From assembly GCA_902826215.1 (NCBI GenBank), contig CADEDY010000016.1, positions 3,109-67,108 of the forward strand: a DNA stretch of 64,000 nucleotides, in the 5' to 3' direction. Below the pieces are notes generated by a model. That model worked only from the letters and a program-made list of their open reading frames with translations, did no database searches and was not told the DNA's origin. Numbering within the stretch: position 1 is the stretch's first letter; each line of letters begins with the position of its first letter. A program made the position numbers and the translations under genes. This stretch comes from an uncultured Bacteroidota bacterium (lineage in GTDB: Bacteria > Bacteroidota > Bacteroidia > Flavobacteriales_F > PHOS-HE28). Shown here in pieces: positions 7,165 to 62,232 of this stretch.

Positions 7165-8310
7165 ATGTCAGCACCGCAAACCACGAACTCAACGGAAACC
7201 AAGCGCCCCTCGCGTTGGCATCGGCCGTTGTGGTGGCTGAACGTCTTGGCGGCAGTGGTGTTCTTGATCACCTTCCTCGCTCCCAGTGTGAGTCCTGTGA
7301 TCTCCTGGATACCGGCTTTGTTGGCGATGACCTTCGTCTTCCAGTTGGCGGTCCACGTCGGGTTCCTCGTGTGGTGGTTCTTGTTCCGCCGCAAGCGGAT
7401 GTTGCTCTCGGGGGCCTTGTTGGTGCTGGGCTACGGACACGTGAAGGACCATGTGCAGTTCTTCGGCCGCAGTGGACCGGAACAGCCCACCGTGCAGGAA
7501 ATGAAGGTGCTCTCGTACAACGTGCGCCTCTTCGACCTGTACAATTGGAGCCACAACAAGGTGACACGCGACAGCATTTTCGCGTTGCTCCATCGCGAAG
7601 ATGCCGACGTTCTTTGCCTGCAGGAATTCTTCCAGAGCAACGATGCACGGTTCTTCCCCACGCGATCCAGTCTATTGAAGGACTTCCGCTACAATCAGGC
7701 CCACGAGCACTATACCCATGAAGCGCGCTACGATCAGCATTTCGGGATCGCCACGTTCAGCGCGTTCCCGATCGTCAAGAAGGGCTTCATCGACTTTCCG
7801 GGAACCACGAACAATGTGTGCATCTGGTCGGACATCGCCTTGACGAGCGACACGATCCGTGTGTACAATGCGCACCTGGCCTCCTACCACTTCGGCGATG
7901 AGGACTACAAATTCCTTCAGGACCTCGACACCGATACGCACACCGATAGTTTGAAACTGGGCGGCGAGCGGATCCTGAAACGTTTGCGGCGTGGCTTCCG
8001 ATTGCGCGCAGGTGAAGTGGAGAAGATCGCCGAGCACATGCGAAACAGCCCCCATCCGGTGTTGTACTGCGGCGACATGAACGATGTACCGATGAGCTAC
8101 GGCTATGCTGCCTTGCGATCGGTGCTGGAGGACGCCTTCGTGGAAAGTGGAACCGGGTTGGGTGGCACCTACATCGGCAACTTGCCCAGCCTTCGCATCG
8201 ATCACATTCTTCATGGCCCCGAATTGGAGGCCTGGAATTTCCGCACGCTCCCGAATGAGCTGAGCGACCACCGTGCGATCTCTTCGACCATCGGACTTCG
8301 CGCTCCTTGA
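7165..8310 (+). CDS. Endonuclease/exonuclease/phosphatase (EEP) family membrane protein
   Basis: N-terminal TM helices followed by an EEP fold with DVLCLQEF, the terminal SDHRAI motif, and catalytic Asp/His positions. Confidence 0.75.
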   Translation: MSAPQTTNSTETKRPSRWHRPLWWLNVLAAVVFLITFLAPSVSPVISWIPALLAMTFVFQLAVHVGFLVWWFLFRRKRMLLSGALLVLGYGHVKDHVQFFGRSGPEQPTVQEMKVLSYNVRLFDLYNWSHNKVTRDSIFALLHREDADVLCLQEFFQSNDARFFPTRSSLLKDFRYNQAHEHYTHEARYDQHFGIATFSAFPIVKKGFIDFPGTTNNVCIWSDIALTSDTIRVYNAHLASYHFGDEDYKFLQDLDTDTHTDSLKLGGERILKRLRRGFRLRAGEVEKIAEHMRNSPHPVLYCGDMNDVPMSYGYAALRSVLEDAFVESGTGLGGTYIGNLPSLRIDHILHGPELEAWNFRTLPNELSDHRAISSTIGLRAP

Positions 8311-8401: not shown

Positions 8402-9358
8402 ATGCACCACGCACCACTCCTCACGTACCTGTTCCTCGCCTTGTTGTTCTTGATCGGTTGCAGCCGTTCTGCCGAGAGCGCTCAGGACCTGTTCAAGACA
8501 GATGAAAGCGCAGCGAACGGTGATCTCGAATTTCTTTCCAATGGTGAAAGTGCAGGTCTGGCAAGCCCGAGTAAACCCGAAGAGGCCTTGAGTTCGAGCG
8601 CAGCACGCGCCACCGCTGACACATCGCGACGCTTTCTCCGCACAGGGGATCTGCGCTTTCGGGCCAAGGATGTGGTGCGCACCACCTTTGCGATCGAAGA
8701 GTTGATCGCGGGCCACGGCGGCTACGTAGCCGAAACGCGCCTCAGGACCGAGATCGGGCACCGGTACCTCACACTGATAAGTGCCGACAGCTCGTTGGAG
8801 ACCACCAAATTCACGGTGATCAACAGGCTCACTGTTCGTGTGCCGAGTGCAGCACTGGATACCACGCTCAAGAGTTTGATCGCGCATGTGGACTTCTTGG
8901 ATCACCGCACGCTTTCCGCGACGGATGTACGCTTGCAGTTGCTGCGGGACCAGCTCACACGTTCACGAATCGCAATGCATGAGACACGGCTGTCCGACGC
9001 GATCGACGAACATGGCAACAAGCTGAAGGACGCCGTTGCTGCGGAAGAACAACTGCTCGCACGTCAGGAACAAGCCGACGAGGCCGCGCTGCATACCCTG
9101 GATCTCGAAGACCGCATCGCCTACAGCACGTTGACCCTGGACATTTACCAACGTGAACAGATCCGCCGCGAACTGCTTGCCAATGAGCAGAACATCGAAG
9201 TCTACAAGCCCGGCTTCTTTGCGCGAGCAACAGAAGCCTTAGCCGACGGCTGGTCCTTGCTTGTTCAATTCAGCTTGTTCCTGCTGCGGTCGTGGAGCGT
9301 GATCCTGTTGACGGTGCTGGCCTACGTGCTCTTCCGTCGGTTCATCCGTCGTGCGTGA
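8402..9358 (+). CDS. DUF4349-like lipoprotein (signal + lipobox LIGC, central coiled-coil, C-terminal TM anchor)
   Basis: LFLALLFLIGCS lipobox. Long Q/E/R-rich helical middle. C-terminal hydrophobic LLVQFSLFLLRSWSVILLTVLAYVLF. The architecture matches DUF4349, but the family assignment is from memory only. Confidence 0.5.
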   Translation: MHHAPLLTYLFLALLFLIGCSRSAESAQDLFKTDESAANGDLEFLSNGESAGLASPSKPEEALSSSAARATADTSRRFLRTGDLRFRAKDVVRTTFAIEELIAGHGGYVAETRLRTEIGHRYLTLISADSSLETTKFTVINRLTVRVPSAALDTTLKSLIAHVDFLDHRTLSATDVRLQLLRDQLTRSRIAMHETRLSDAIDEHGNKLKDAVAAEEQLLARQEQADEAALHTLDLEDRIAYSTLTLDIYQREQIRRELLANEQNIEVYKPGFFARATEALADGWSLLVQFSLFLLRSWSVILLTVLAYVLFRRFIRRA

Positions 9359-49227: not shown

Positions 49228-50892
49228 ATGCGCTTAACAGCACTTTGTCTTCTCCTTATCACCAGCGCCAGCACAGCCTTCGCCCAACCCGAACTCGCAG
49301 GCGACTTGAACACGCTGCCCGGTTGGATGCAACAGGTGATCTCCACCGAGAAGACACAGTCCTGTATCCTACCGAAGCGCGCCCCCTTGCACACCAACGC
49401 CTTCATCGGCACATGGAGCATCGCGAAGAAGAACGGATCGCGCTACGATTTCTGGAGCGACAAGTATCGTGTGGTGATCAAAGAGATCGACCGGAAAGGC
49501 GAACAACGGCGAACCTATTACATCGACCTGGAGGCGAACCTGCGCATGAACGCAAGCACGCACGAGGATGGAAACTTCTTCGCTGTAGAGGATCTGGAGA
49601 TCCCGCAGGCCGGTTACTTCCGAGAGCTTTGGAACGATTCGGTGCAAGCGACCGGTCGTGTGGAGGACATCCTGGGAGCATCTTGCAAGGAGCTGCGCGG
49701 CATCGACGGCAACAAGGACACGACCTACTACTGGAGCACCAACAAGCACCCCAAGCTCTTCGCCGACCTGCTGGTGTGGGCGCAGTGGCTGTGCCGCGAA
49801 GGCGACCTGAAATTCCTGAGCGCACTCAGCGACAGGAACGCTGGCGGATCGATGCGTGTGGACTGGCCGAAGCGCCGCTTTGGGCTAGAAGCCGGGAGTA
49901 TCGCCTTCCTGTCGATCACGCCCGGCGCCACGCCCATGCCTGTGCTGGAGCATAGGCCATACAAGGTGGTGGAGCAGCGTTTCCAGTGGTTGAACAACTC
50001 GGGCATCGGCCGCCTGCCGGATTGGATGCGCAGCTCCATCACTTCGCTCGAGCCCCATCCATTACCAGTGCAATTCACACCCGCACCCGTGGATCGCGGC
50101 ATCGCGGACAATGCCTTCATCGGCACCTTCACGGCGGAAACGCCTACGCGCTATGTTGATGAGAGGAAGGACACCACCATCCGGCTTGCGAAATACAGCT
50201 ACTGGGCCGATGCACGCCGTGCTGTCCTCACCCTCAACGACCCGGACGATGAAGGCACCGTGATCTACATGGTCGATCTCGATGCAGACGTGGCCATCGT
50301 AGCGACCAACGAAGGACACAGCTATGTGATCCCCAAGCTCTACATCGGCACGCTGGAGGACGCTGGACTTACCGAGTTCGGGCGTGGTGTGGAAATGGAC
50401 TTCCAACCACAAGGCCAATACAAGACAATTCTAGGCCGTAAATGCGAACTGCACACTTCGGCGGAAAGGTTCCTCCATTTCTACCTGTTCCCGAAGGAGG
50501 AAGTGCAGAACCCCATCTTCGACATGGCCCGGTGGATGGAACCACGCCCTTCGCAGAAGTTCAAGGACATCATGTTCTTCGGTGTCGCCGATAGGCCGAT
50601 GCCGATGGCCGTAATGAGCACGCAATTGACCAGTTACAAGCCCGGCAGCACCAAGCCACCGATCATCGACCTGAGCAATTACAGCGTGCGGGATCAGCGG
50701 CTCGAGCGTCGCCGGAATCGGGAGGAGCGACCGATGATCGAAGAACGCATCATTTCCATGGATGACCTGGAGAACGACAATTTGGTGGCACCAACTGAAG
50801 AGCCACCGGTATACATGATCGCAGAACCGCGGATTGAAATACCCGAACCACCACCGGTTGCGCCACCGCCACCGCCCGTGGCCCCGCGATGA
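49228..50892 (+). CDS. Secreted protein with two homologous internal domains and a Pro-rich C-terminal tail (paralog family member A)
   Basis: Signal peptide MRLTALCLLLITSASTAFAQ. Domains at about 30-270 and 280-520 share FIGTW / FIGTF and ILGASCKEL / ILGRKCEL motifs. The tail is EPPPVAPPPPPVAPR. Confidence 0.65.
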   Translation: MRLTALCLLLITSASTAFAQPELAGDLNTLPGWMQQVISTEKTQSCILPKRAPLHTNAFIGTWSIAKKNGSRYDFWSDKYRVVIKEIDRKGEQRRTYYIDLEANLRMNASTHEDGNFFAVEDLEIPQAGYFRELWNDSVQATGRVEDILGASCKELRGIDGNKDTTYYWSTNKHPKLFADLLVWAQWLCREGDLKFLSALSDRNAGGSMRVDWPKRRFGLEAGSIAFLSITPGATPMPVLEHRPYKVVEQRFQWLNNSGIGRLPDWMRSSITSLEPHPLPVQFTPAPVDRGIADNAFIGTFTAETPTRYVDERKDTTIRLAKYSYWADARRAVLTLNDPDDEGTVIYMVDLDADVAIVATNEGHSYVIPKLYIGTLEDAGLTEFGRGVEMDFQPQGQYKTILGRKCELHTSAERFLHFYLFPKEEVQNPIFDMARWMEPRPSQKFKDIMFFGVADRPMPMAVMSTQLTSYKPGSTKPPIIDLSNYSVRDQRLERRRNREERPMIEERIISMDDLENDNLVAPTEEPPVYMIAEPRIEIPEPPPVAPPPPPVAPR

Positions 50893-51689
50893 GCAACACG
50901 ACACACCACTGTTACATGCGGCATCCAGCGCTATTGCTCGTTCTTGTTCTGGCCACCTGCACACACGCACAATCCATCGCGCTTCCCGAATGGATCCATG
51001 GGTCCTTTGCACCCGAAGCCTCCACCGTGCTCACGGACCAGCCGACGCATAGCGCCTTGCGCAACACCTTCATCGGCAGCTACATGGTGCGCATCACCAT
51101 CCGGCACGATGGCATCACCCAACAACTCTATGTGAGCCAATGGTCCGACACCACACGCGGGGTGGTGCAGGTGCAGATGATACCGGGCTTCCCGCACACC
51201 ACCTACTTCGCCGACTTCAGCAGCAATACGGCCGTGATCGCCAACATCATCGAGCGCAAGGCGCGCGTGGGCGAGTTGAATGCGGTGCTGCTCACCGATC
51301 GCTTGGGTTCACCCGGCGCAGGCGCGCAGTTCGCTCCCTTCGGATCGATCAACGCCAAGCAGACCGAGAACATCGCTGGTATCGATTGCACGGAACACCT
51401 GCTCGTGGAAGGCGCCGACACCATGCACATGTGGCTCGCTGACATTTCGCCATCGCCCTTTGCCGAAGCTCCCGCTTGGATCCCGTTGAATGAAGGGCCA
51501 TTGAAAGCATTCCGTTTGCTGTACAAACTCGGTGATCGCGTTGCGTTCAAGTTCGTGTTGGCGCCGATGATCGAACTGGAGGTGATGGACTACACACCCG
51601 GCAGTGCACCTCCACCCTCCATCGACCTCAGCAGCTACACGTTGGAACGCATGCCAGCTGGGTCATTGGCGAGTCCCAAGCGCCCGTAG
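50889..51689 (+). CDS. Secreted single-domain paralog (family member B)
   Basis: Signal peptide. FIGSYMVRI and NIAGIDCTEHL motifs homologous to the domains of 49228-50892. ATGA overlap with the preceding gene. Confidence 0.65.
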   Translation: MSNTTHHCYMRHPALLLVLVLATCTHAQSIALPEWIHGSFAPEASTVLTDQPTHSALRNTFIGSYMVRITIRHDGITQQLYVSQWSDTTRGVVQVQMIPGFPHTTYFADFSSNTAVIANIIERKARVGELNAVLLTDRLGSPGAGAQFAPFGSINAKQTENIAGIDCTEHLLVEGADTMHMWLADISPSPFAEAPAWIPLNEGPLKAFRLLYKLGDRVAFKFVLAPMIELEVMDYTPGSAPPPSIDLSSYTLERMPAGSLASPKRP

Positions 51690-51716
51690 CAAGCGAAGAT
51701 ACAAGGCTTCATTATC

Positions 51717-52541
51717 TTGTCGTCCCTACCATCCCTGATCATGAGAACCGCACTCCTCCTCTCCCTGCTCGTTGTTTCCGTTGGCCAGAACACCCACGCC
51801 CAATCGCTCGAAGAGCTGATGAAGAGGGCGATGGAGCAAAGTCAGCAGAGTGCCGGCGGTGGTGCTGGAAGTGTCACCATCGAAGAGAACAACGACCCTT
51901 TCGAGCCGTTGGGTTTCACCGGTTCCTACAAGATGGAGGTGCATAATTACAAGAGCGGGAAAGAGGACAAGGACAGCCCGATGTTCGTGGACCTGGCATT
52001 CACCGACGATAAGATGGCCATTGCACCGCACAGCAGCTCTGCTGCCAAGCAGGACATGCGCATGATCTATGACCTCAAGAACAAATTCACGTACACGTTG
52101 ACGACGGATGAGAACGGAAAGCGCACCGGCATGAAGATGAAAATGATGAAGGTGAACGTGGATGAGAAGGAAGGCAAGGCCTCGTCCGATAAGACCAAGG
52201 TCGTGCGAACCGATGAGACCAGGACCATTGCCGGGCACACCTGCCGCAAATACACGTTCAGCGATGAGACCGGTAGCGGCGAAGCCTGGATCGCGGAGGA
52301 TGTCAAGTTCGATCCATCGAAGGCCATGGGCACCATGGTGGGCGGCAAGAAAGTGGAGAACTGGCAGAAGACGCCCTATACCGGCCTGGTGATGGAGACC
52401 ACGTGGAACGATGCCAATGGCAAGGACAAAATGGTCATGTACTGCAAGGACCTCGTGGTGGGCAAGGTGGATGAAGCCGCCTTCAGCACATCGGGCTACG
52501 AGATCATGGACATGAGCAACATGCCGATGTTCGGGAAGTGA
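51717..52541 (+). CDS. Secreted single-domain paralog (family member C; possibly DUF4412-like)
   Basis: Signal peptide MRTALLLSLLVVSVGQNTHAQ. FTGSYKMEV and RTIAGHTCRKY motifs in the same order as in members A and B. Lys-rich and lower in GC. The DUF4412 attribution is from memory only. Confidence 0.6.
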   Translation: MSSLPSLIMRTALLLSLLVVSVGQNTHAQSLEELMKRAMEQSQQSAGGGAGSVTIEENNDPFEPLGFTGSYKMEVHNYKSGKEDKDSPMFVDLAFTDDKMAIAPHSSSAAKQDMRMIYDLKNKFTYTLTTDENGKRTGMKMKMMKVNVDEKEGKASSDKTKVVRTDETRTIAGHTCRKYTFSDETGSGEAWIAEDVKFDPSKAMGTMVGGKKVENWQKTPYTGLVMETTWNDANGKDKMVMYCKDLVVGKVDEAAFSTSGYEIMDMSNMPMFGK

Positions 52542-52978
52542 TCATGCAAATCCATCCGGGGCTCATCGTAGCGGGCGGGATCGGCCAGATCTTCACCGCA
52601 TTGATCTACCCGTATATCCGCCATCGGGTATTCGATTGGTACACGGATGTGCGGAAGTTGAAACCGTTGAACCAAGAGATCGCCAAGACCTACGGACGGT
52701 ACATCGTTGGACTCAACTTCGGCTTCGGGCTTATGGCCGTTCTGATCCCGAACGACCTGATGAACGGGACTCCTCTTGCCGTTGCCATCACCGGCTTGAT
52801 CGCCGCCTATTGGATCGGTAAAGTGATCACGCAGTTCGCATACTATCCGATGTACACCATACCTCCCGGGGCGATCTTCAAATGGGGAGGCTACGGCATG
52901 AACATCCTTTTTTGCTCCTTCGCCGTGCTGTATGCAATGCTCGTGTATCATAACATAGCCTTGTTGACCGCTTCATGA
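52538..52978 (+). CDS. Hypothetical small integral membrane protein (GTG 52538 or ATG 52544 start)
   Basis: Four predicted TM segments in 146 aa. Overlaps the stop of the preceding gene. Confidence 0.5.
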   Translation: MIMQIHPGLIVAGGIGQIFTALIYPYIRHRVFDWYTDVRKLKPLNQEIAKTYGRYIVGLNFGFGLMAVLIPNDLMNGTPLAVAITGLIAAYWIGKVITQFAYYPMYTIPPGAIFKWGGYGMNILFCSFAVLYAMLVYHNIALLTAS

Positions 52979-53580
52979 CCCCTACGGGCAAACCCAGCAA
53001 GCTCGATTCTTTGGAGCGTGTGGAGGTGTGCAGCCGTGCGGAATGGCGTGCGTGGTTGAGAAAGCATCACACCCGAAAGGCCGGAATTTGGCTCGTGTAC
53101 TGGAAGAAGGGTCATCCCGACAAGCACATCGGTTATGTGCCGATCGTGGAAGAGGCCCTTTGTTTCGGGTGGATCGATAGCACGGCGCGCACTCTGGATG
53201 CCGACCGGTCCATGCTCCACGTCTGTCCGCGCAAGCCGAAAAGCATGTGGAGCAAGGTGAACAAAGGCCACGTGGACAGGCTGATCGCGAGCAAACGCAT
53301 GATGCCTGCCGGCATGAAGGCCATCGAGGTGGCCAAGGCCAATGGTTCATGGACCACACTCGATGCAGTGGACACCTTGGAAGTTCCGAAGGATCTGGCC
53401 AAGGCGTTGGCCATGGACCGTACCGCGAAGAAGCATTTCGATGCCTTCCCCGCCAGTGCGCGCAAGTACATCCTCTACTGGATCAGCAGTGCACGGACGG
53501 ACGGCACACGAGCCAAGCGCATCGCCCAGACCGTTGACCAAGCGGCACAGAACATCCGCGCTGGGATGCAACGACCATGA
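52975..53580 (+). CDS. YdeI/OmpD-associated family protein (DUF1801-like)
   Basis: Conserved LCFGWIDS and YILYWISSAKT-type motifs (here YILYWISSARTDGTRAKRI). 201 aa. Confidence 0.65.
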   Translation: MTPTGKPSKLDSLERVEVCSRAEWRAWLRKHHTRKAGIWLVYWKKGHPDKHIGYVPIVEEALCFGWIDSTARTLDADRSMLHVCPRKPKSMWSKVNKGHVDRLIASKRMMPAGMKAIEVAKANGSWTTLDAVDTLEVPKDLAKALAMDRTAKKHFDAFPASARKYILYWISSARTDGTRAKRIAQTVDQAAQNIRAGMQRP

Positions 53581-54398
53581 ACGCGACAGCAGTGAAGGGG
53601 GTATTGAACGAGGCCTACGAACGCTACGCGCAACCCTCCTTCATCGACCTCGACCCCATCCACATCCCGCGCTCCTTCGCACGACGCGCCGACGCGGAGG
53701 TGATCGGCTTCCTCACGGCCACCATCGCGTGGGGCCAACGCGTCACCATCATCAACAACGCGAAGAAGCTGGTGCAACTGATGGACGAAGCACCACACGA
53801 CTTCGTAATGAACGCTACGGACAGCGAACTCGATCGCCTCGCCCCTTTCATCCACCGCACCTTCAACGGCACCGACCTGCGGCATTTCGTGCTCGGTCTT
53901 CGCCACCTGTACAACGCCTACGGCGGTTTGGAGAACGCATTCCTTCCGGAAGCGAACGGAGCTTCGAGCCGCGAGCCACGAGCTGGCGCAAGCAAGCTCA
54001 AGGCTCGAAGCTCGTGGCTCGCAAGTGAAGGCATTCCCCTCTTCAAGCAACGCTTCTTCGAGCCCACCCACCAGCCACGCACGCAAAAGCACGTCGCCGA
54101 TCCCGGCAAGGGCAGCAATGCCAAACGCATCAACATGTACCTGCGCTGGATGGTGCGCCCCAACGACCGCGGCGTGGATCTCGGCCTGTGGAAGAAGATC
54201 ACACCCGCCGACCTGATGGTGCCGCTGGATGTCCACACCGGCCGTGTAGGCCGCGAGCTGGGCCTCTTGCAACGTACCCAGGACGATTGGAAGGCCGTGG
54301 AGGAACTCACCGCCAGCCTACGCATGTTCGATCCGGCAGACCCGGTGAAGTACGACATCGCGTTGTTCGGTATCGGGGTGAATACGGAACGCAGATGA
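53577..54398 (+). CDS. TIGR02757/DUF2400 family protein
   Basis: Conserved segments YLRWMVRPNDRGVDLGLW and VPLDVHTGRVGRELGLL typical of this Bacteroidota-enriched family. Assignment from memory. Confidence 0.5.
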   Translation: MNATAVKGVLNEAYERYAQPSFIDLDPIHIPRSFARRADAEVIGFLTATIAWGQRVTIINNAKKLVQLMDEAPHDFVMNATDSELDRLAPFIHRTFNGTDLRHFVLGLRHLYNAYGGLENAFLPEANGASSREPRAGASKLKARSSWLASEGIPLFKQRFFEPTHQPRTQKHVADPGKGSNAKRINMYLRWMVRPNDRGVDLGLWKKITPADLMVPLDVHTGRVGRELGLLQRTQDDWKAVEELTASLRMFDPADPVKYDIALFGIGVNTERR

Positions 54399-54640
54399 CG
54401 CGGATCTTGCTGATGAACGCTGATCAAAGCTCAGGCATTGGGGGGAGCTATGGAACGCAGAGGACGCGGATCCAGCTGACGAGCACTGATCCTTCGTCAT
54501 GAAGCAATGGGTGGCATTCATCTGTGTCGATCCCCCCATCTGTGTCATCAGCGTTCCAACCCCATCCCATCCGCATTCCACCGCCACCATCTGCATAATC
54601 CGCGTCGATCCGCCCCATCTGCGTCCTCTGCGTTCCAACA
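54385..54640. repeat. Cluster of degenerate direct and inverted repeats (motif GGAACGCAGAKGACGCGGATC and its reverse complement; CATCTGYG sub-repeats) upstream of the BatA-domain gene
   Basis: Direct copies at 54385-54432 and 54451-54496 (about 75% identical). Inverted partial copy at 54605-54634 (reverse complement GGAACGCAGAGGACGC...CGGATC). CATCTGTGTC at 54519 and 54538. CATCTGC at 54588 and 54616. GTCGATCC at 54525 and 54603. Confidence 0.6.
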
Positions 54641-54664
54641 CCCACCCGACTATCTTCGCACCCA

Positions 54665-56701
54665 ATGTCCTTCCTACACCCGGCATTCCTCTGGGCCCTT
54701 ACCGCCCTGGCGATCCCGGTGCTCATCCACCTCTTCCAGCTTCGGCGCTTCAAGCGCATCGACTTTCCGAACGTTCGGTTCTTGGCGGAGATCTCGCAGC
54801 AGACGCGTGCTCGGAAGAAGGTGCAGCATTGGCTCGTGCTCTTGGCTCGCTTGCTCGCCCTGGCCTGTTTGGTATTGGCCTTCGCGCAACCCTACTTGCC
54901 CAGCAAAAGCGGCGCGGTGCAGGCCGGACAGCGGGCGGTATCGCTCTTCTTGGACGACTCCTTCAGCATGGACGGTCGCAACGCGCAAGGGCGCTTGTTG
55001 GATCAAGCCCGTAAAGGCGCACAGGATGCCGTGATGGCCTACAGTGCCACCGACCGTTTCCAAGTACTCACCGGCCAGTTCGGTGGCAAAGAGCAGATCC
55101 TGCTCGGGCGCGACGAAGCCCTCGATGCATCGGCACAAGCAGAGGTCGGTCCGTACTCCCGTTTGCTCAGCAAAGTGCTGTTGCGCCAACGTGAAGCCCT
55201 GGCCAGCAGCGAGGCACGGACCAAGCGGTCCATCCTCTTCACCGACCTGCAACGCTCCATCACCGATGTGGAAAGTTGGACCAACGACAGCCTCGTCCCC
55301 ACCGTGATCGTGCCGCTCACCGCCAGCACGCCGGACAACCTCAGCATCGACAGCGCCTGGTTCGGCAGCCCCGTTCGCCGCGCCGGACAGGATGAAGAAC
55401 TGCATGTCCGGATCCGCAACTACGGCGACCAAGAACTGGTGAATGTGCCATTGCGCTTGGATGTGGACGGACGACAACGCGCCGTGGCCTCCTTCAGCGT
55501 GGGTGGCGGTGCTGTGGTGGATACCACCTTGCGTTTCCTAGGCGATGGCCCCGGCAACCACTGGGGCGTGGTGAGCGTGACCGATCAACCCGTGGTGTTC
55601 GATGACCGCCTTTACATCGCGTACCAAGTGACCGACCGATTGCGCGTGCTGCTCGTGAGCGGTGGCGATGCAACCGGCGACCGCGCCGTCACCAGTGTTT
55701 TCGCAGGTGATAGCACGCACACCTTCACCACCCAACCCTACCGTGCGCTCGACCTCGCCGGACTTGCGGCGCAGGACCTCGTGGTGCTGAACGCCCTGCC
55801 CGATGTGCCCGGCGGACTGCTCAACGCGCTCACCGATTTCGTCGCCAATGGCGGCAGCATGGTCGTGTTCCCGCCGAGCCAAGGCGATGCCAGCCGCTAC
55901 ACCGAACTCTTCGGGGCCATGGGTGCGGCTGCTCCCACCCGTCTCGATACCGGCACCGTGCGCGTGGACCGCATCGACCTGGAAGAACCCTTCTACCGCG
56001 CCATCTTCCAGACCATGCCCCGCAACGTGGAACTGCCCGTGGTGCGCGAACGCTGGAACGTGCGCCCTGCTCCGGGCAGCGATGTTCTGCTGCGCTTGCA
56101 GGACGGCAGCCCCTTCCTCGCGCGCAGCATGCGGGGCAAGGGCACCGTGTACCTCTGCGCGGCGCCCTTGGCCGAAAGCGCAAGCAACCTCACCCGTCAC
56201 TCGCTCTTCGCCACGTCGCTGCTGCGCATGGCCGAACTGAGCCGCCCCATGGGCGCCCTCTACCACACCATCGGCGACGAGGCCAGCATTCCGTTGGAGA
56301 CCGCCACACCCACCGACGAGCCTCCACATTTGAAAGGTCCCGAAGGCCTGGATCTGGTGCCCGAAGTGCGTCGCACCGCCAGCCGCACCGAGCTGCTGTT
56401 GCACGATCAGGACCTGCCCGACGGCCCCTACTTCATCACCAGCGGCACCGACACCTTGAGCGCCGTTGCGCTGAACCTCGCCCGCCGCGAGAGCGACCTG
56501 CAAGCCTTCACCGGCGACGAGCTGCGCGCCCTCCTCACCGAGCGCGGGCTCACCACCTTCTCGGTGCTCGAAGGCGGCTCCGAGGATCTTTCGTTACGTT
56601 TGAATGAACTCGACCAGGGGCGCAAACTGTGGAAGTGGTTCATCCTCTTCGCCCTGCTCTTCCTGGCCGCTGAAGTGTTCCTGATCCGCTACGTCCGATG
56701 A
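54665..56701 (+). CDS. BatA-domain protein (N-terminal double-transmembrane domain), large periplasmic region, C-terminal TM anchor
   Basis: N-terminal FLHPAFLWALTALAIPVLIHLFQLRRFKRIDFPNVRFL matches the BatA/N-terminal double-TM domain. C-terminal helix WFILFALLFLAAEVFLI. 678 aa. Confidence 0.7.
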   Translation: MSFLHPAFLWALTALAIPVLIHLFQLRRFKRIDFPNVRFLAEISQQTRARKKVQHWLVLLARLLALACLVLAFAQPYLPSKSGAVQAGQRAVSLFLDDSFSMDGRNAQGRLLDQARKGAQDAVMAYSATDRFQVLTGQFGGKEQILLGRDEALDASAQAEVGPYSRLLSKVLLRQREALASSEARTKRSILFTDLQRSITDVESWTNDSLVPTVIVPLTASTPDNLSIDSAWFGSPVRRAGQDEELHVRIRNYGDQELVNVPLRLDVDGRQRAVASFSVGGGAVVDTTLRFLGDGPGNHWGVVSVTDQPVVFDDRLYIAYQVTDRLRVLLVSGGDATGDRAVTSVFAGDSTHTFTTQPYRALDLAGLAAQDLVVLNALPDVPGGLLNALTDFVANGGSMVVFPPSQGDASRYTELFGAMGAAAPTRLDTGTVRVDRIDLEEPFYRAIFQTMPRNVELPVVRERWNVRPAPGSDVLLRLQDGSPFLARSMRGKGTVYLCAAPLAESASNLTRHSLFATSLLRMAELSRPMGALYHTIGDEASIPLETATPTDEPPHLKGPEGLDLVPEVRRTASRTELLLHDQDLPDGPYFITSGTDTLSAVALNLARRESDLQAFTGDELRALLTERGLTTFSVLEGGSEDLSLRLNELDQGRKLWKWFILFALLFLAAEVFLIRYVR

Positions 56702-57999
56702 ACGAGATCGTACTTCGCAAGGTGAAGGTGGTGGACCCCGGTGGTCCGCACCACGACAGCATCGTGGACATCCTCATCCGCGATGGCCGCATCGAGAAGA
56801 TCGGCGAACGCATCGCCCGCGGCGACACCCCCGTGGTGAAGATCGACGGGGCGCATGCCAGTCCCGGTTGGGTGGATCTGCGCGCGCACTTCCGCGATCC
56901 CGGCGAAGAGTGGAAGGCCGGCATCACCAACGGCCTCGATGCCGCCGCTGCCGGTGGCTTCACTGCGGTGGCTGTGCTGCCCAGCACCAAACCCGTCACC
57001 GACGACCGCGCGGGTATCGGCTACCTGCTGCGCCAAGCCGAGGGCCACCCCGTGCAACTGCTGCCGCTGGGCGCCATCACCCAAGGCCTCAAGGGCGAAC
57101 AGCTCGCCGAACTGCACGACCAGCAACAGGCCGGTGCGGTGGGCTTCAGCGACGACCAGCACACCATCCGCAATGCGCGGCTGATGCTCCTTGCCCTGCA
57201 ATACGCCGCTGGTCTCGGGGCCAAGGGACTGCCCGTGATGGTGTTCCCGAACGACCCGGACCTGGCCCGCAACGGGCAGATGCACGAAGGCGCCATGAGC
57301 ACCCGCCTCGGCCTCAAGGGCCTGCCCCCGCTGGCCGAAACACTTCAGCTGCAACGCGACCTCGCGATCCTGGCATACACCGGTGGGCACCTGCACGTAT
57401 CAACGATCAGCACCGCCGAAAGCGTGGAACTGGTGCGCCAAGCGAAGGCGAAGAAGTTGCACATCACCGCCAGCGTGGCCACTCACAACCTGCTGCTGGA
57501 CGATGGCTGCCTGCGCGGCTTTGAGACCTGCTACAAGGTGCTGCCGCCACTGCGCGACCTGGAACACATCGATGCCCTGCGCGAAGGCGTGAAGGACGGC
57601 ACCATCGACGCCATCGTGAGCGACCACCGCCCTGAGGACCGCGAACACAAGGTGCTGGAATACGGCCCCGCCGCCTTCGGCATCATCGGGCTGGAGACCG
57701 CCTTCGGAGTGGCCAACACCGCCCTGAAAGGCCGCATGCCCTTGCGCCGCACCATCGAACGTTTCACCCACGGCCCGCGCGCCGTGCTGGGCCTGCCCCG
57801 CGTACACATCGCCGAGGGCACCGCCGCCAACATCACCCTCTTCGACCCCGAAGTGGACTGGACCTGCACCGAAGCCGACCTCGTGAGCAAGAGCCACAAC
57901 ACCCCTTTCTTGGGGCAACGGCTTACCGGCCGGCCGCTGGGCATTGTGGTTGGGAAGGTGGTGAGGATGGTGCCGGCGATGAAGGGCGAAGTAGCATAA
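56698..57999 (+). CDS. pyrC: Dihydroorotase (amidohydrolase superfamily, multifunctional-complex type)
   Basis: WVDLRAHFRDPG (metal-binding His pair context), FSDD, ITASVATHNL and DHRPED motifs. 433 aa. 4-nt overlap with the upstream gene. Confidence 0.85.
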   Translation: MNEIVLRKVKVVDPGGPHHDSIVDILIRDGRIEKIGERIARGDTPVVKIDGAHASPGWVDLRAHFRDPGEEWKAGITNGLDAAAAGGFTAVAVLPSTKPVTDDRAGIGYLLRQAEGHPVQLLPLGAITQGLKGEQLAELHDQQQAGAVGFSDDQHTIRNARLMLLALQYAAGLGAKGLPVMVFPNDPDLARNGQMHEGAMSTRLGLKGLPPLAETLQLQRDLAILAYTGGHLHVSTISTAESVELVRQAKAKKLHITASVATHNLLLDDGCLRGFETCYKVLPPLRDLEHIDALREGVKDGTIDAIVSDHRPEDREHKVLEYGPAAFGIIGLETAFGVANTALKGRMPLRRTIERFTHGPRAVLGLPRVHIAEGTAANITLFDPEVDWTCTEADLVSKSHNTPFLGQRLTGRPLGIVVGKVVRMVPAMKGEVA

Positions 58000-58129
58000 G
58001 TTGCTCCGTTAAGGAAGCTCCATCATTACGCCAAGACCTCTAATTGGCATCATAAGTTCGCGAAGAACGGAACAGCCACAAGCACACTTGGCAATCTCGA
58101 AATGCCGTTAGGTCTCCACACTGGGTGAA

Positions 58130-58888
58130 TTGGACAAGCGCTTGAAATATCTCTTGATCGTCTCGATCCTCTTGAACGGGATTCTGCTCTACTTGCTCTT
58201 CCGACCCGAGGCGATCGATCGAATCCCCCCTTGGCATCCATTCCAATTGAACTCGGACCTCACCTTGGGATCGATCGTGGACGATGGATATCGCTTCGCA
58301 AGTATGCCGTGTGGTCAAGTGCAATACACCAAGCAATTAGGCGATACCATCATTCAATATGAAGTTGAAGTCGATTGCAGATCCTATCATGGCAAGCATG
58401 AACCGAACTTCGAGTTCGGGGGTGATGAAGTGATCCCGGATTTGAATGAAGGCGAAAGAACGCAGGAGGAGATTGAACAGGAGAAGCTCAGCGCTAGAAA
58501 TTGGGAAGCGGCGGTCAAGTCGAACGCGTATTACCCGTGGACCCCAAATGAGATCGAAGGTTGCTATCAGAACATCAATTGGCGGGTATTCACCATAGTC
58601 CTCGGTCAAACGATCGATAGCCTCTTCATTGAGGACTACATCAGGAGCAAAGACGGCGTAGTGAATGAACACTTGAGCGATTGGAACGCACGCGATGGCG
58701 GAAATATCGTTGTCTATTACCCTGCGACATCGATCTACTTTCAATGTTCGCTGAGCCGCGACTGGTCCAGCGAAGAATCCGAACAATGGGAATTCAGGAT
58801 CGTAAGGACAATTCCTGACCTTGACCAGCGGGCGAGAGAAGCCAGACAGGAGCGCTCGAAGATGATCGGGAAGTACTATGGACGCTGA
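58130..58888 (+). CDS. Hypothetical membrane-anchored protein (TTG start at 58130; N-terminal TM helix). First gene of the low-GC islet.
   Basis: N-terminal LKYLLIVSILLNGILLYLLF helix. GC about 50-52% versus about 65-70% in the flanking genes. No recognised family. Confidence 0.5.
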   Translation: MDKRLKYLLIVSILLNGILLYLLFRPEAIDRIPPWHPFQLNSDLTLGSIVDDGYRFASMPCGQVQYTKQLGDTIIQYEVEVDCRSYHGKHEPNFEFGGDEVIPDLNEGERTQEEIEQEKLSARNWEAAVKSNAYYPWTPNEIEGCYQNINWRVFTIVLGQTIDSLFIEDYIRSKDGVVNEHLSDWNARDGGNIVVYYPATSIYFQCSLSRDWSSEESEQWEFRIVRTIPDLDQRAREARQERSKMIGKYYGR

Positions 58889-59016
58889 ATCGACGCAAGG
58901 TCCTCGATCTTCTACATCCTATTGAACCATACCGTTATCGGTTCCATGAAGTCGATCTCCGATCAAACCACGGAGGTCAACAGTTCGGTGATATCTTCGA
59001 ACAGTAACCTCACCCT

Positions 59017-59412
59017 ATGCGGAAGATCGCTGGCCTTTCCCTTCTCGTTTCCCTTCTCACAAGTTGCGGGCCTGTTGACCACAGGTGTGCTGAGGATGGA
59101 AAGCGGATCGCCGAACTGGACAGTGCTTATGTCATGGGTCTGCGACGAGGCGGGGAACAGATGGACCCAATGCATCTCGGTGAGCAGAAATACGATCTCA
59201 TGACCGTGCGTATGATGGCCGACCAAGAACACGTGCCTGTTGCCGATATCGCACTGGGCTATCAGGAACGATTGTTCTGCAGCGAAGACTGCGCGAGTTC
59301 AACTTTGGCCCAATTGAACAGTAAAGTGGACAGCTTGGTGAACCATAGAAGGCAGTTGCACATCTTGGACTCGCTTGTCATGGACAGCATACATCGGGGG
59401 TTGATCAGGTAG
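59017..59412 (+). CDS. Hypothetical small lipoprotein
   Basis: MRKIAGLSLLVSLLTSCG lipobox. 131 aa. Lies on the low-GC islet. Confidence 0.5.
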   Translation: MRKIAGLSLLVSLLTSCGPVDHRCAEDGKRIAELDSAYVMGLRRGGEQMDPMHLGEQKYDLMTVRMMADQEHVPVADIALGYQERLFCSEDCASSTLAQLNSKVDSLVNHRRQLHILDSLVMDSIHRGLIR

Positions 59413-59432
59413 CAGCGGAATTGAACTGATCC

Positions 59433-60356
59433 ATGGATTCCAATCCCGCCATCCTCTTCTGCAAGAACCCTGTTGATCCCAGCACGGTGGATCCGGATTT
59501 CGCGGCTGAGATGAATGCAGCAACGCAGGCTGGGTTCTCGACCGTACTCCTCGACTACGAAAGCCTCACCACAACGGACGATCCCGATCGTGCGCTGCGA
59601 AGTGTAAAGCAAGCAGCGCAGCGTACCAGGCTGATCTATCGAGGCTGGATGCTAACTCCACAGGAGTATACGAGGTTGTTCGTAGCCCTTGGAGCGAAGG
59701 GCTACGACCTGGTGAATAGCCCCACAGAGTACCAGAACTGCCACTATCTGCCCGATAGTTTGAAGTACATCAAGACCAGAACACCACGGGCCGTTTTCGC
59801 TCCCATCAACGACCAAAGCGATATTGAAAGCTTGGTGCAGATGGCCCATGTGTTCGGGAACTCGCCGGTCGTTATCAAGGATTACGTGAAGTCCGAAAAG
59901 CACGATTGGGAGCAGGCATGCTACGTTGCGAATGCCTTCGACAGTGTTTCACTAGAACGATCCATCGGCAACCTTTTGAAGCTTCGCGACAAGTACTTGA
60001 ACGTGGGTGTTGTGGTCCGTGAATTCGTGGAGTTGAACCTGTTGACCAACCATTCGAAAAGCGGGATGCCGTTGGCGGAGGAGTACCGGCTGTTCTTCTT
60101 CAACAACGAATTGCTATCCGCAGCTGCCTATTGGGAAGAGGGAACTTATGCGACCACACCAGTTGACACGAAGGAATTCGAGGCCGTCGCACGAACGGTC
60201 GAGAGCAACTTCTTCTGCATGGACATCGCTCGTAAGAAGAATGGTGAGCTCATCATCATCGAGCTTGGCGACGGACAAGTGGCAGGGTTACCAGAGCGGA
60301 TGGAGTGCCTCGAGTTCTATCGAACATTGTGGGCTAGGTACAAAGTCAGCTCGTAG
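59433..60356 (+). CDS. ATP-grasp fold protein (possibly R2K-clade / DUF4343-like)
   Basis: 307 aa. ATP-grasp-like segments VVIKDYVKSEKHDWEQACYV, VVVREFVEL and the C-terminal ELIIIELGDGQVAGLP resemble the Mg/ATP-binding strands of ATP-grasp enzymes. Assignment by eye; needs HMM confirmation. Confidence 0.55.
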   Translation: MDSNPAILFCKNPVDPSTVDPDFAAEMNAATQAGFSTVLLDYESLTTTDDPDRALRSVKQAAQRTRLIYRGWMLTPQEYTRLFVALGAKGYDLVNSPTEYQNCHYLPDSLKYIKTRTPRAVFAPINDQSDIESLVQMAHVFGNSPVVIKDYVKSEKHDWEQACYVANAFDSVSLERSIGNLLKLRDKYLNVGVVVREFVELNLLTNHSKSGMPLAEEYRLFFFNNELLSAAAYWEEGTYATTPVDTKEFEAVARTVESNFFCMDIARKKNGELIIIELGDGQVAGLPERMECLEFYRTLWARYKVSS

Positions 60357-60404
60357 TTCCAGACTATGTTGGAAACTGGGCAGAATAGAATTAACCACCA
60401 TACA

Positions 60405-61010
60405 ATGAAATACCAGATCCGTGCTCGGTTTACGGACACCACTATACGTGTATATCAGGCGTACAGTCCTGCCATTGCTAGACCTGCACTTGAGGCGGGC
60501 GAGTTCGTCGCGCCTTTCAAAATGGGGCGCATGACCTGGATCAAACCCTCATTCAATTGGATGATGTACCGATGCGGATACGGCCAGAAAGAAGGGCAAG
60601 AATTCGTTCTTGCCATCGACATTTCGCGAGAAGGTTTCGAGTGGGCATTGGCGAACGCTGTGCTTTCCCATCCCCTGCCTGGGCTATACCCATCGCACGA
60701 GGCATGGAAAACCGAATTGGTGAACAGTTCCGTTCGGGTGCAATGGGACCCAGAGCGCAATTGGGCGCTTCAAGAGATACCGAATATCCGCTCCATTCAG
60801 ATCGGCCTGTCCGGGGAAGCAGTGGAACGCTATGTCAATGAATGGATCACAGGCATCACCGATGTATCCGCCATAGCTGCTCAACAGGCGGAATCACCTT
60901 CGGTCATGATCAACGAACATCCTCAAACCCAAGAGCAGCCTTATCCATTGCCCATTTCGATCGCAGAGAAACTCATCCCCACCGGAGAGAGCGAGCAAGC
61001 CGGGTTGTAG
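60405..61010 (+). CDS. DUF4291-like protein (start at MKYQIRA; the ORF track begins at 60366)
   Basis: IRVYQAY...WIKPSFNWMMYRCGYGQKEGQEFVLAIDI segment matches my recollection of DUF4291. 202 aa. Lies 9 nt after the ATP-grasp gene (48 nt if the ATG 60405 start is used). Confidence 0.5.
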   Translation: MKYQIRARFTDTTIRVYQAYSPAIARPALEAGEFVAPFKMGRMTWIKPSFNWMMYRCGYGQKEGQEFVLAIDISREGFEWALANAVLSHPLPGLYPSHEAWKTELVNSSVRVQWDPERNWALQEIPNIRSIQIGLSGEAVERYVNEWITGITDVSAIAAQQAESPSVMINEHPQTQEQPYPLPISIAEKLIPTGESEQAGL

Positions 61011-61084
61011 TAGAGTCCCTTGACCAGCACAGGGTCTTCCATCTTCGTAGACCCCGCCCGCATTTTGACTTACCCCTCACGTCC

Positions 61085-61348
61085 ATGAAGATCACCCTCG
61101 ACATCCCCGACCATGACCCCGACCGTGGTTTGCAACACACCTGGGTCGACGGATTCACCATCCAAGTTTCAGTGGCGGATGGCGAAGTGCTGATCGAAGC
61201 GAACGATGCGGGCTTGATGTCGTTGGCGAACCACTTGGTGATGCTGGCACAGCAGGGCACACCGGATAGCAGCCACATCCATTTGGACGAGCACAATGCG
61301 TTGGAGGATGGGTCAACGGCACTCGTGATCGGGAAGTTGGCTGGGTAG
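61085..61348 (+). CDS. Hypothetical 87-aa protein (MKITLDIPDHD...); last ORF of the low-GC islet
   Basis: ORF with an ATG at 61085 inside the longer track ORF 60842-61348. The size and acidic character are reminiscent of small immunity-type proteins, but no family was recognised. Confidence 0.35.
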   Translation: MKITLDIPDHDPDRGLQHTWVDGFTIQVSVADGEVLIEANDAGLMSLANHLVMLAQQGTPDSSHIHLDEHNALEDGSTALVIGKLAG

Positions 61349-61425
61349 GCTCGGACCCACGGCGACCCGAAATGCACCACGCACCTTGTCGATGACTTGC
61401 TAACCGACCCTCTCAAGTGTTCAGG

Positions 61426-62232
61426 TCAGATGGGGCCGGGTGCAGGTGGAACGGGTTCGAGGAACGGATGCGCCGAGGGATCCTGCACGACAGCGTCCAA
61501 CCAGGCGCTGAATTGCGAGACGCGCACGAAGTGCTCCACGGCACCATAGCTGCACGGACCATCGTTACCCGGTTCGCCCATGGAACTGATACCGGCCAGG
61601 CGAAGGCTGCCATCGGTTCCGATCAGGGCTGGTCCACCGCTATCGCCCGGTCCGCTGGTACCTTCCTTATCCGTCGCATCCGGTCCGGGTGCGTCGTAGT
61701 CGAAGAGGAGGTGCGTGTCGTCCACCGCATCCACCACATTGGTGTAGGTGCGCAACTTCCCGTCGCGCAACCAGGTACCGTCCGGGTTGCGGCGGTCGCC
61801 GTGGCCGGCAAGAATGATCATGCGGCCCAACTCGTCGTTCCCTGTGTAATACGGGACCGGTTCCACGTGTGGCACGCTCTCCTTCAACTGAAGGAGCGCG
61901 ATGTCGTACCGCCCCATCGGTGTGAACCGCGGATGCAGGTACACCTTGTCAACTGACCTGATCGTTCCGTCGTCGAAGTACACGTTGAGCGCGCCTTCAC
62001 TCCTCCGGTACAAGCCATAGGCGACATGCGCGGCGGTGAGCACCCATTGCGGGGCGATCAAGGTGCCATCGCCTCCCTGTTGCCCCACTTTGCACACGGC
62101 GTTGATGCTCGTTACACCATTCATCGGGTCGGTGTGCTGCGGGCGCTCGAAACCGATCTCCTTTCCACCACAACCGGACCGCATGGTGGTGATGACCACA
62201 CTGGCGAGTACGAAGGCGATCGGATTATTCAT
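61426..62232 (-). CDS. Secreted trypsin-like (S1 family) serine protease
   Basis: Signal peptide. Catalytic triad contexts TAAHV (His), DIALL (Asp) and GDSGGP (Ser). 268 aa. Confidence 0.8.
   Translation of the reverse strand: MNNPIAFVLASVVITTMRSGCGGKEIGFERPQHTDPMNGVTSINAVCKVGQQGGDGTLIAPQWVLTAAHVAYGLYRRSEGALNVYFDDGTIRSVDKVYLHPRFTPMGRYDIALLQLKESVPHVEPVPYYTGNDELGRMIILAGHGDRRNPDGTWLRDGKLRTYTNVVDAVDDTHLLFDYDAPGPDATDKEGTSGPGDSGGPALIGTDGSLRLAGISSMGEPGNDGPCSYGAVEHFVRVSQFSAWLDAVVQDPSAHPFLEPVPPAPGPI

Follow-up and report, generated by a model that had tools for sequence, protein, structure and literature searches.

We describe here two adjacent genes in a 64,000-nucleotide stretch of a contig from an uncultured Bacteroidota bacterium (GenBank CADEDY010000016.1, positions 3,109 to 67,108; hereafter 'the window'). 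The first encodes an ATP-grasp protein of the R2K.3 family, and the second a protein of the DUF4291 family, for which an ADP-ribosyltransferase (ART)-like fold is predicted. The two genes are gained and lost as a single cassette of ∼1.6 kb in one lineage of Flavobacteriales metagenome-assembled genomes (MAGs), and their pairing appears to be an event of that one lineage rather than a conserved two-component system. We favor, with modest confidence, the reading that two intact, separately distributed and mostly solo accessory enzymes have been joined in a cassette of this lineage, and that they are loosely related in process.

The cassette in related strains

Comparison of the window with contigs from related strains (L108 to L111) defined the cassette. 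In L109, the stop codon of the gene that precedes the pair in the window (encoding a 131-residue protein) is followed by 71 nt and then directly by the gene that follows the pair in the window (a member of the Imm32 immunity family); exactly the R2K.3 and DUF4291 genes are missing. In L111, a strain variant of the same lineage that provides the sole further occurrence of the pair, the genes for the 131-residue protein, R2K.3, DUF4291 and Imm32 are all present at 98.8% identity to the window. The joints of the cassette are ∼20 nt. The gene on its left flank is present in L109, L110 and L111 at 93–99% nucleotide identity, and a leader-like sequence located 5′ of Imm32, on its right flank, is also found in L109 and with the Imm32 copies of L108. 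These observations are evidence of co-inheritance in one lineage, not of functional dependence.

The locus 3′ of the dihydroorotase gene, in which the cassette lies, is built as a mosaic whose segments are interchangeable. The 2.3 Mb contig L108 is 99.0% identical to window positions 50711–57988, and synteny ends exactly after the dihydroorotase gene; its replacement region is without the pair and contains other genes together with two or three diverged copies of the Imm32 segment (86–92% identity). Window positions 61022–61211, corresponding to the leader and Imm32 segment, match L108 positions 9066–9253 at 86.8%. L111 is 98% identical to window positions 54587–57978 and continues with a different segment thereafter, carrying upstream of the cassette the same genes as L109 (encoding a DUF6896 protein and a 145-residue protein) and downstream of it the same genes as L108 (encoding proteins of 259 and 171 residues and an M28 protein). 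The gene order in L109 (the 131-residue protein, Imm32, a trypsin-like protein, MarR and a winged helix-turn-helix regulator) is accompanied by 93–95% identity to the window. A gene for a 252-residue protein found in the window is absent from both L109 and L111, with the DUF6896 gene and the gene for the 145-residue protein in its place.

An initial annotation, made from the sequence alone, had proposed that the pair sits on a horizontally acquired islet. That proposal is supported by the GC content of the four islet genes (0.50–0.53, versus 0.64–0.66 in the flanking BatA and dihydroorotase genes) and by the break in synteny at the end of the dihydroorotase gene. The R2K.3 and DUF4291 genes are alike and low in GC content (0.534 and 0.524, respectively), and the strain-variable region as a whole ranges from 0.50 to 0.58. 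Records naming the flanking BatA and dihydroorotase proteins exist for many 'Flavobacteriales bacterium' MAGs, against only 2–5 records for the islet proteins. No repeats beyond chance flank either the islet or the cassette, and there is thus no sign of a site-specific insertion mechanism.

Occurrence of the pair elsewhere

We searched for the pairing starting from each of the two families. The R2K.3 sample comprised 80 metagenomic loci (35–56% identity), one Deinococcaceae genome locus (the sole return of a scan of genome contigs queried with a single protein), Elizabethkingia genomes and six plasmid loci. A hidden Markov model built from 120 DUF4291 proteins detected no DUF4291 gene near R2K.3 in any of ∼88 independent loci (0 of 85 in a first set and 0 of 91 in a later one); flanks of at least 700 bp were present downstream in 64 of the first 85 loci and upstream in 50. 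Starting from DUF4291, for which a scan of viral contigs with a family alignment returned four loci, R2K.3 was found near none of 13 independent contexts (37–75% identity), and no Imm32 gene was found near DUF4291 among the other DUF4291 loci sampled. Among 72,556 plasmids, 59 carry a DUF4291 gene and 14 carry an R2K.3 gene, with no accession shared between them. A search of 1.84 billion representatives with a concatenated query gave no fusion of the two proteins, the best 150 of 3,583 matches each covering one half.

The initial annotation had described the two genes as a tight pair and as a two-component module of a ligase and its partner. The first description holds within the lineage, where the genes are linked, co-directional and part of one cassette, but the pairing was found nowhere outside it; the second is contradicted by the failure of the two families to co-localize in the R2K.3 loci, DUF4291 contexts and plasmids sampled. 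A 2025 survey of DUF4291 neighborhoods (PMC12522546) makes no mention of ATP-grasp genes. The specific pairing of R2K.3 with DUF4291 is undescribed, and both families are already catalogued.

The R2K.3 protein

The product of the first gene is an intact ATP-grasp enzyme of the R2K.3 family, in agreement with its initial assignment to the R2K clade. Residues 143–299 of the 307-residue protein match the Pfam family R2K_3 (PF14243; E=7.9e-29, 101.4 bits against a cutoff of 26.3), with a weaker Pfam match to R2K_2 (2.5e-18). Lysines 149, 153 and 156 (within the motif KDYVKSEK), which correspond to the two-lysine signature of R2K proteins in the RAGNYA domain, are invariant over 25–26 homologs, as are the residues E277-L-G279-D280 (within ELGDGQV). 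The ExGD motif formed by the latter, in place of ExN in the final strand, is specific to R2K.3 (Burroughs, Zhang & Aravind 2015, PMC4431377). Homologs number in the hundreds, and the named ones among the closest are mostly from Bacteroidota (∼55% identity).

An AlphaFold (AF2) model of the protein, with a predicted local distance difference test score (pLDDT) of 88.8, displays the ATP-grasp fold. Foldseek matched it to ArgX, LysX, PsnB, MdnC, RimK, DcsG and Ddl at E values of ∼1e-11 to 1e-9, and the alignments to ArgX, LysX, PsnB, RimK and Ddl span ∼310–350 columns, including the pre-ATP-grasp domain; no relative was found among PDB sequences at the sequence level. The nearest structural matches are ligases that act on protein or peptide carboxylates, and an amide or peptide ligase activity is predicted for the R2K.3 family by extension from its superfamily. 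Some homologs of R2K.3 and of DUF4291 are extended at their N- or C-termini, and these extra regions contain no recognizable Pfam domain.

The DUF4291 protein

The initial annotation had also recognized the downstream partner as a DUF4291 protein, and a Pfam scan of its 214-residue open reading frame (ORF) agrees (PF14124; E=1.7e-66, 224 bits; cutoff 27); like those of the R2K.3 protein, these scores greatly exceed chance. The family is very large (over 7,800 clusters in our search) and unusually conserved: relatives at 55–65% identity include proteins from a Verrucomicrobiota and a Gemmatimonadales MAG, and further homologs are found on plasmids of Pseudomonadota, Actinomycetota and Bacteroidota. 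The window protein retains every invariant residue (with Q31, W58, K60 and Q145 invariant in 27 aligned sequences), and its motifs RVYQAY, TWIKPS and SIQIGL are intact. The corresponding family motifs (QA[YF], WIK and [AS]IQ) have been proposed to form an atypical ART active site (PMC12522546, 2025), and the canonical H-Y-E or R-S-E triad is replaced (by Q/Y, W/K and Q).

DUF4291 had initially been taken for a family with no assigned function. That description is superseded by the 2025 survey, which predicted an ART fold for it (PMC12522546), and by our own AF2 model, which independently reproduces that fold (pLDDT 87.2; predicted template modeling score, pTM, 0.86); the model thus indicates an ART-like fold for the window protein. 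Its best Foldseek match in the PDB is the toxin domain of RhsP2 (7RT7; E=1.9e-5, probability 1.0, template modeling (TM) score of 0.66 on the target), and exotoxin A, ParT, TreTu and PARP catalytic domains, with PARP4 among these, come next. No match to PDB sequences was found at the sequence level. By analogy with diphtheria-like toxins, the authors of the survey favor a protein target for the family (PMC12522546).

Gene neighborhoods of the two families

Members of both families usually occur as solo genes in variable or mobile settings, with integrases, IS6 elements, restriction-modification genes and a serine recombinase nearby. Among 115 immediate neighbors of R2K.3 genes, drawn from 82 loci, there is no dominant partner: RlaP is the commonest (five ORFs), there are two R2K paralogs and two integrases, and KptA, ADP-ribosylglycohydrolase (ARG), GmrSD_N, PIN_8 and DUF2357/PDDEXK_7 occur once each. 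Two loci contain R2K.3 within an RNA-repair operon. The first (L064, 1182–5634) encodes in succession an RNA ligase, an HD phosphohydrolase with an AAA_33 kinase (Pnkp-like), RlaP, R2K.3 and a second RlaP, with overlapping stop and start codons; the second (L028, 897–3713) encodes an OB domain with an RNA ligase, then R2K.3 and then KptA, with a gap of 8 nt before the last. In three further loci (L030, L065 and L079) a downstream RlaP gene overlaps the R2K.3 stop codon, in L073 KptA lies two genes 3′ of R2K.3, and on a Deinococcus taeanensis plasmid (NZ_CP083457.1; L101, 2077–5666) R2K.3 is divergent from a macro-domain gene.

Approximately 6% of the sampled R2K.3 lineages point in this way to a network of enzymes of NAD+/ADP-ribose chemistry and RNA repair, as does a similar share of the DUF4291 neighborhoods in the literature (PMC12522546). 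The reported neighbors of DUF4291 are TetR, NUDIX (18%), Macro and ARG (9–10%) and KptA (10%) (PMC12522546), and in Firmicutes an ARG gene has been noted between R2K.2 and R2K.3 (PMC4431377). Because the R2K.3 contexts share kinds of partner with those reported for DUF4291, a loose functional link between the two families through RNA and ADP-ribose chemistry is plausible, as a second-order association and a lead only. The DUF4291 gene of the window holds the slot that KptA, also of ART fold, occupies in L028; no islet gene of the window has a Pfam match to RNA_ligase, RlaP, a PNK-like kinase or KptA. The link of R2K.3 to RNA-repair operons goes unmentioned in PMC4431377, and a 2016 survey of RNA repair may already describe R2K ATP-grasp proteins there.

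Several individual loci had further features. In L101 the R2K.3 and macro-domain genes lie between two identical IS6 transposase genes, in an arrangement resembling a composite transposon, with an AbiE toxin-antitoxin pair nearby. On two different Paenibacillus plasmids (L100 and L105) R2K.3 is preceded by a gene for a 'reverse transcriptase-like' (RNase H-like) protein of ∼146 residues. On an IMG/VR contig (L087, 2045–5393), which provides a further context of the conflict type, a SUKH-1 (SMI1_KNR4) gene lies two genes 5′ of DUF4291, and a serine recombinase gene lies directly 3′ of it. The closest DUF4291 relative (75% identity; L091, 59–2260) adjoins a gene for an NgoMIV-type restriction enzyme, and another relative (L099, 1–4642) follows genes for a DNA methylase, a HATPase_c_3 protein and a PP_RS20740-family protein; because of these two contexts, we conclude that DUF4291 is sometimes located in restriction or defense islands. 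A trypsin-like peptidase gene convergent to DUF4291, found both in the window and in L115 (4103–6183, minus strand), was dismissed as a coincidence, with only catalytic motifs shared between the two peptidases (BLASTP E=0.006–0.016).

Arrangement of the locus

Both ORFs of the pair were verified at the positions given in Table 1. They lie in the same reading frame with one TAG between them: the R2K.3 stop codon occupies positions 60354–60356 and is followed by an ATG 9 nt on. The initial annotation had given the gap between the genes as 9 nt, which is correct if translation starts at that codon; the DUF4291 ORF contains a second in-frame ATG at position 60405. Since most homologs begin at the position of this codon (M14) and the source record annotates a product of 201 residues, the second ATG is probably the true start, with a gap of 48 nt. 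The intergenic gaps are only 20 nt (between the gene for the 131-residue protein and R2K.3), 9–48 nt (between R2K.3 and DUF4291) and 74 nt (between DUF4291 and Imm32), from which we infer that the pair is probably co-transcribed with both neighbors. No plus-strand terminator was found in a promoter and terminator scan that performed at chance level and is ill-suited to Bacteroidota promoters.

Table 1. Coordinates of the cassette and of neighboring features in the window.
Feature	Position	Strand	Basis or remarks
Strain-variable, low-GC mosaic region (hypervariable locus)	57989..61349		3′ of dihydroorotase; loss of synteny and GC content
252-aa membrane-anchored protein, family not recognized	58130..58888	+	N-terminal hydrophobic helix, KD19 = 2.14
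131-aa predicted lipoprotein, conserved left flank of cassette	59017..59412	+	Lipoprotein-type signal (...LLTSC)
Presence/absence cassette of ∼1.6 kb, exactly R2K.3 and DUF4291	59413..61030	+	Strain comparison with L109 and L111
R2K.3-family ATP-grasp, predicted ATP-dependent amide/peptide ligase, 307 aa	59433..60356	+	Pfam PF14243, motifs, AF2/Foldseek
DUF4291 protein, ADP-ribosyltransferase-like fold, 214-aa ORF	60366..61010	+	Pfam PF14124, motifs, AF2/Foldseek
Conserved leader 5′ of Imm32, right flank of cassette	61031..61084	+	Recurs with Imm32 in related strains
Orphan Imm32 immunity-family gene, 87 aa, pI 4.3	61085..61348	+	Start ATG 61085; Pfam PF15566, E=4.4e-14
Trypsin-like peptidase gene	61426..62232	-	Convergent to DUF4291

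The neighbors of the pair are much as first described. The small acidic protein noted downstream is the Imm32 product, and the secreted or membrane proteins noted upstream are the 252-residue protein, which has an N-terminal transmembrane helix, and the 131-residue protein with its lipoprotein signal; neither of the latter two has a match in Pfam, NCBIfam, PADLOC or PHROGs. Searches of NCBIfam, PADLOC and PHROGs with the R2K.3 and DUF4291 pair gave nothing useful.

L108 contains, between positions 7292 and 13302, two or three Imm32 copies, each with a leader of ∼65 nt. These diverged copies of Imm32 and leader suggest that Imm32 repeats serve as recombination anchors in an array resembling a polyimmunity locus, and the window's own Imm32 gene seems to be both an orphan immunity gene and such an anchor within the hypervariable locus. 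In L111 (2103–3451), DNA that is 98% identical to the dihydroorotase gene of the window is called as a protein of 198 residues on the minus strand and one of 231 residues on the plus strand, instead of the 433-residue dihydroorotase; a frameshift or a pseudogene may account for the split calls.

Interpretation of the cassette

In the reading that we prefer, the two enzymes would have separate substrates within one general process, a 'conflict' network of NAD+/ADP-ribose chemistry and RNA damage and repair. DUF4291 would be an NAD+-using transferase acting on a conserved substrate, probably of nucleic-acid or nucleotide type, and R2K.3 would use ATP to join an amino acid or a peptide to a protein or peptide carboxylate. 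The two genes are inherited or lost as one unit and do not form an obligate, conserved two-component system, and any cooperation between their products is putative. As it is known now, the locus is an unexceptional accessory cassette of strain-specific occurrence, drawn from two catalogued and biochemically uncharacterized families, and is not a new conserved system.

Several points weigh against this reading. Gain and loss as one unit and a spacing of 9–48 nt also fit a true but rare functional pair, and the cassette evidence perhaps reflects a single evolutionary event. DUF4291 was sampled from few loci (13 contexts and the plasmids), and the R2K.3 sample covers only relatives of at least 35% identity. 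No KptA/Tpt1 structure ranks among the 50 closest structural matches of DUF4291.

The alternative that fares best, which we regard as possible but clearly the less probable, is that the two genes are purely juxtaposed, a hypervariable locus having gathered unrelated accessory genes by recombination so that they share only a transcript. The mosaic structure seen in L108, L109, L111 and the window would be expected if this were so, as would the heterogeneous neighbors of both families and a pairing never seen elsewhere in our samples. Juxtaposition accounts less readily for two genes of similar GC content that are present or absent together with joints of ∼20 nt, and the independent appearance of both families near KptA, macro-domain and ARG-type genes (PMC4431377; PMC12522546) would be an odd coincidence if they were unrelated.

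A more speculative possibility, which we think doubtful, is that the cassette forms a minimal module for RNA damage or RNA modification. DUF4291 would then be an NAD+-dependent, RNA-directed enzyme of ART fold that either replaces the KptA/Tpt1 of other R2K.3 operons or makes or counters RNA ADP-ribosylation of the RhsP2 type, and R2K.3 would be an unrecognized ATP-dependent ligase of bacterial RNA repair. Since Tpt1 and KptA are not among the top structural matches noted above, a chemistry shared with KptA is suggested by common membership of the ART superfamily and by gene context only. If this possibility were true, it would provide the first functional context for two large uncharacterized families together. 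The joining of R2K.3 to an ART-fold enzyme, along with the RNA-repair contexts of R2K.3, leads to the testable idea that both proteins take part in RNA and ADP-ribose chemistry, and the natural variants with the cassette (the window and L111) and without it (L109 and L108) offer a clean comparison in wastewater-type Flavobacteriales populations.

It is unlikely that the genes form a dedicated, obligate two-component module for modification, tagging or anti-phage activity, in which DUF4291 would ADP-ribosylate a target and R2K.3 would attach a peptide or an amino acid to that same target or product. The tight co-directional spacing, the inheritance as one cassette, the conflict roles proposed for R2K.3, and the ARG linkage noted, by Burroughs et al. 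2015 (PMC4431377), and the presence in L028 of the ART-fold protein KptA in the same slot, 8 nt 3′ of R2K.3, all speak for such a module. They are outweighed by the failure of the two families to co-localize across ∼88 R2K.3 loci, 13 DUF4291 contexts and 72,556 plasmids, by the lack of a fusion among the best 150 matches in the search of representatives, by the absence of a PADLOC match, and by the existence of homologs, 55–60% identical to each protein, that function without the other. Finally, a toxin-immunity pair, with DUF4291 as an ART toxin neutralized by the downstream Imm32 protein or by the ATP-grasp protein, has very little to recommend it. In its favor, DUF4291 is structurally closest to an Rhs ART toxin domain whose structure was determined together with its immunity protein, with ParT and TreTu ranking next; the gene directly 3′ of DUF4291 in the window is of an immunity family, and a SUKH-1 immunity-family gene lies near DUF4291 in L087. 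Against it, DUF4291 is a standalone protein of ∼200 residues without a trafficking or Rhs domain, is conserved across phyla (55–65% identity) unlike fast-evolving toxins, and is usually solo without a conserved small partner, while Imm32 is absent at all other DUF4291 loci sampled, persists without DUF4291 in L109 and L108, and has been reported with Ntox12, Ntox37 and Ntox7, which are predicted to be nuclease toxins (PMC3482391).

Comparison with known systems

The initial annotation had assigned the pair to no described system, and it matches no described defense system: neither protein, nor any of three other islet gene products, has a match in PADLOC-DB v2. The first protein agrees with the published R2K.3 family (PMC4431377) in its Pfam match, two lysines, ExGD motif, conserved pre-ATP-grasp region and sporadic distribution, and in a predicted role as a peptide or amide ligase in conflict contexts; the published linkages of that family are to GNAT, R2K.2 and ARG genes, rather than to DUF4291. 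The second agrees with the predicted atypical ART family described for DUF4291 (PMC12522546) in its strong Pfam match, three motifs and ART fold, and in being mostly a single-domain, solo gene. The authors of that survey prefer a protein target, whereas the best match of the window model is RhsP2, which targets RNA.

The C-terminal ART toxin of RhsP2 from Pseudomonas aeruginosa (PDB 7RT7) is the closest solved fold to DUF4291, and uses NAD+ to ADP-ribosylate the 2′-OH of structured RNA (PMC12340436, PMC11833690). The two are only 16–17% identical. RhsP2 sits at the tip of a large, secreted Rhs protein and is accompanied by a cognate immunity gene, whereas DUF4291 is standalone, highly conserved, of cytoplasmic type and without a conserved partner. 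The ligases RimK, LysX/ArgX and PsnB/MdnC are likewise the nearest solved structures to R2K.3 (E∼1e-11, TM scores of 0.55–0.69) and ligate to protein or peptide carboxylates, but share 12–15% identity with it, and the cassette is without a LysW carrier, a precursor peptide or an S6-type substrate gene.

Bacterial RNA-repair operons resemble the cassette in that homologs of R2K.3 are embedded in two of them (L064 and L028) and lie beside RlaP or KptA in four more loci; unlike those operons, the cassette is without an RNA ligase, RlaP, kinase or phosphatase, and its DUF4291 is not KptA. Heterogeneous polyimmunity loci of polymorphic toxin systems (Zhang et al. 2012, PMC3482391) differ from the locus of the window, where one immunity family is recognized, the other genes encode enzymes or envelope proteins of unknown function and no toxin gene is nearby, but the orphan Imm32 gene, the diverged Imm32 repeats in a related strain and the mosaicism among strains are all features that the locus has in common with them.

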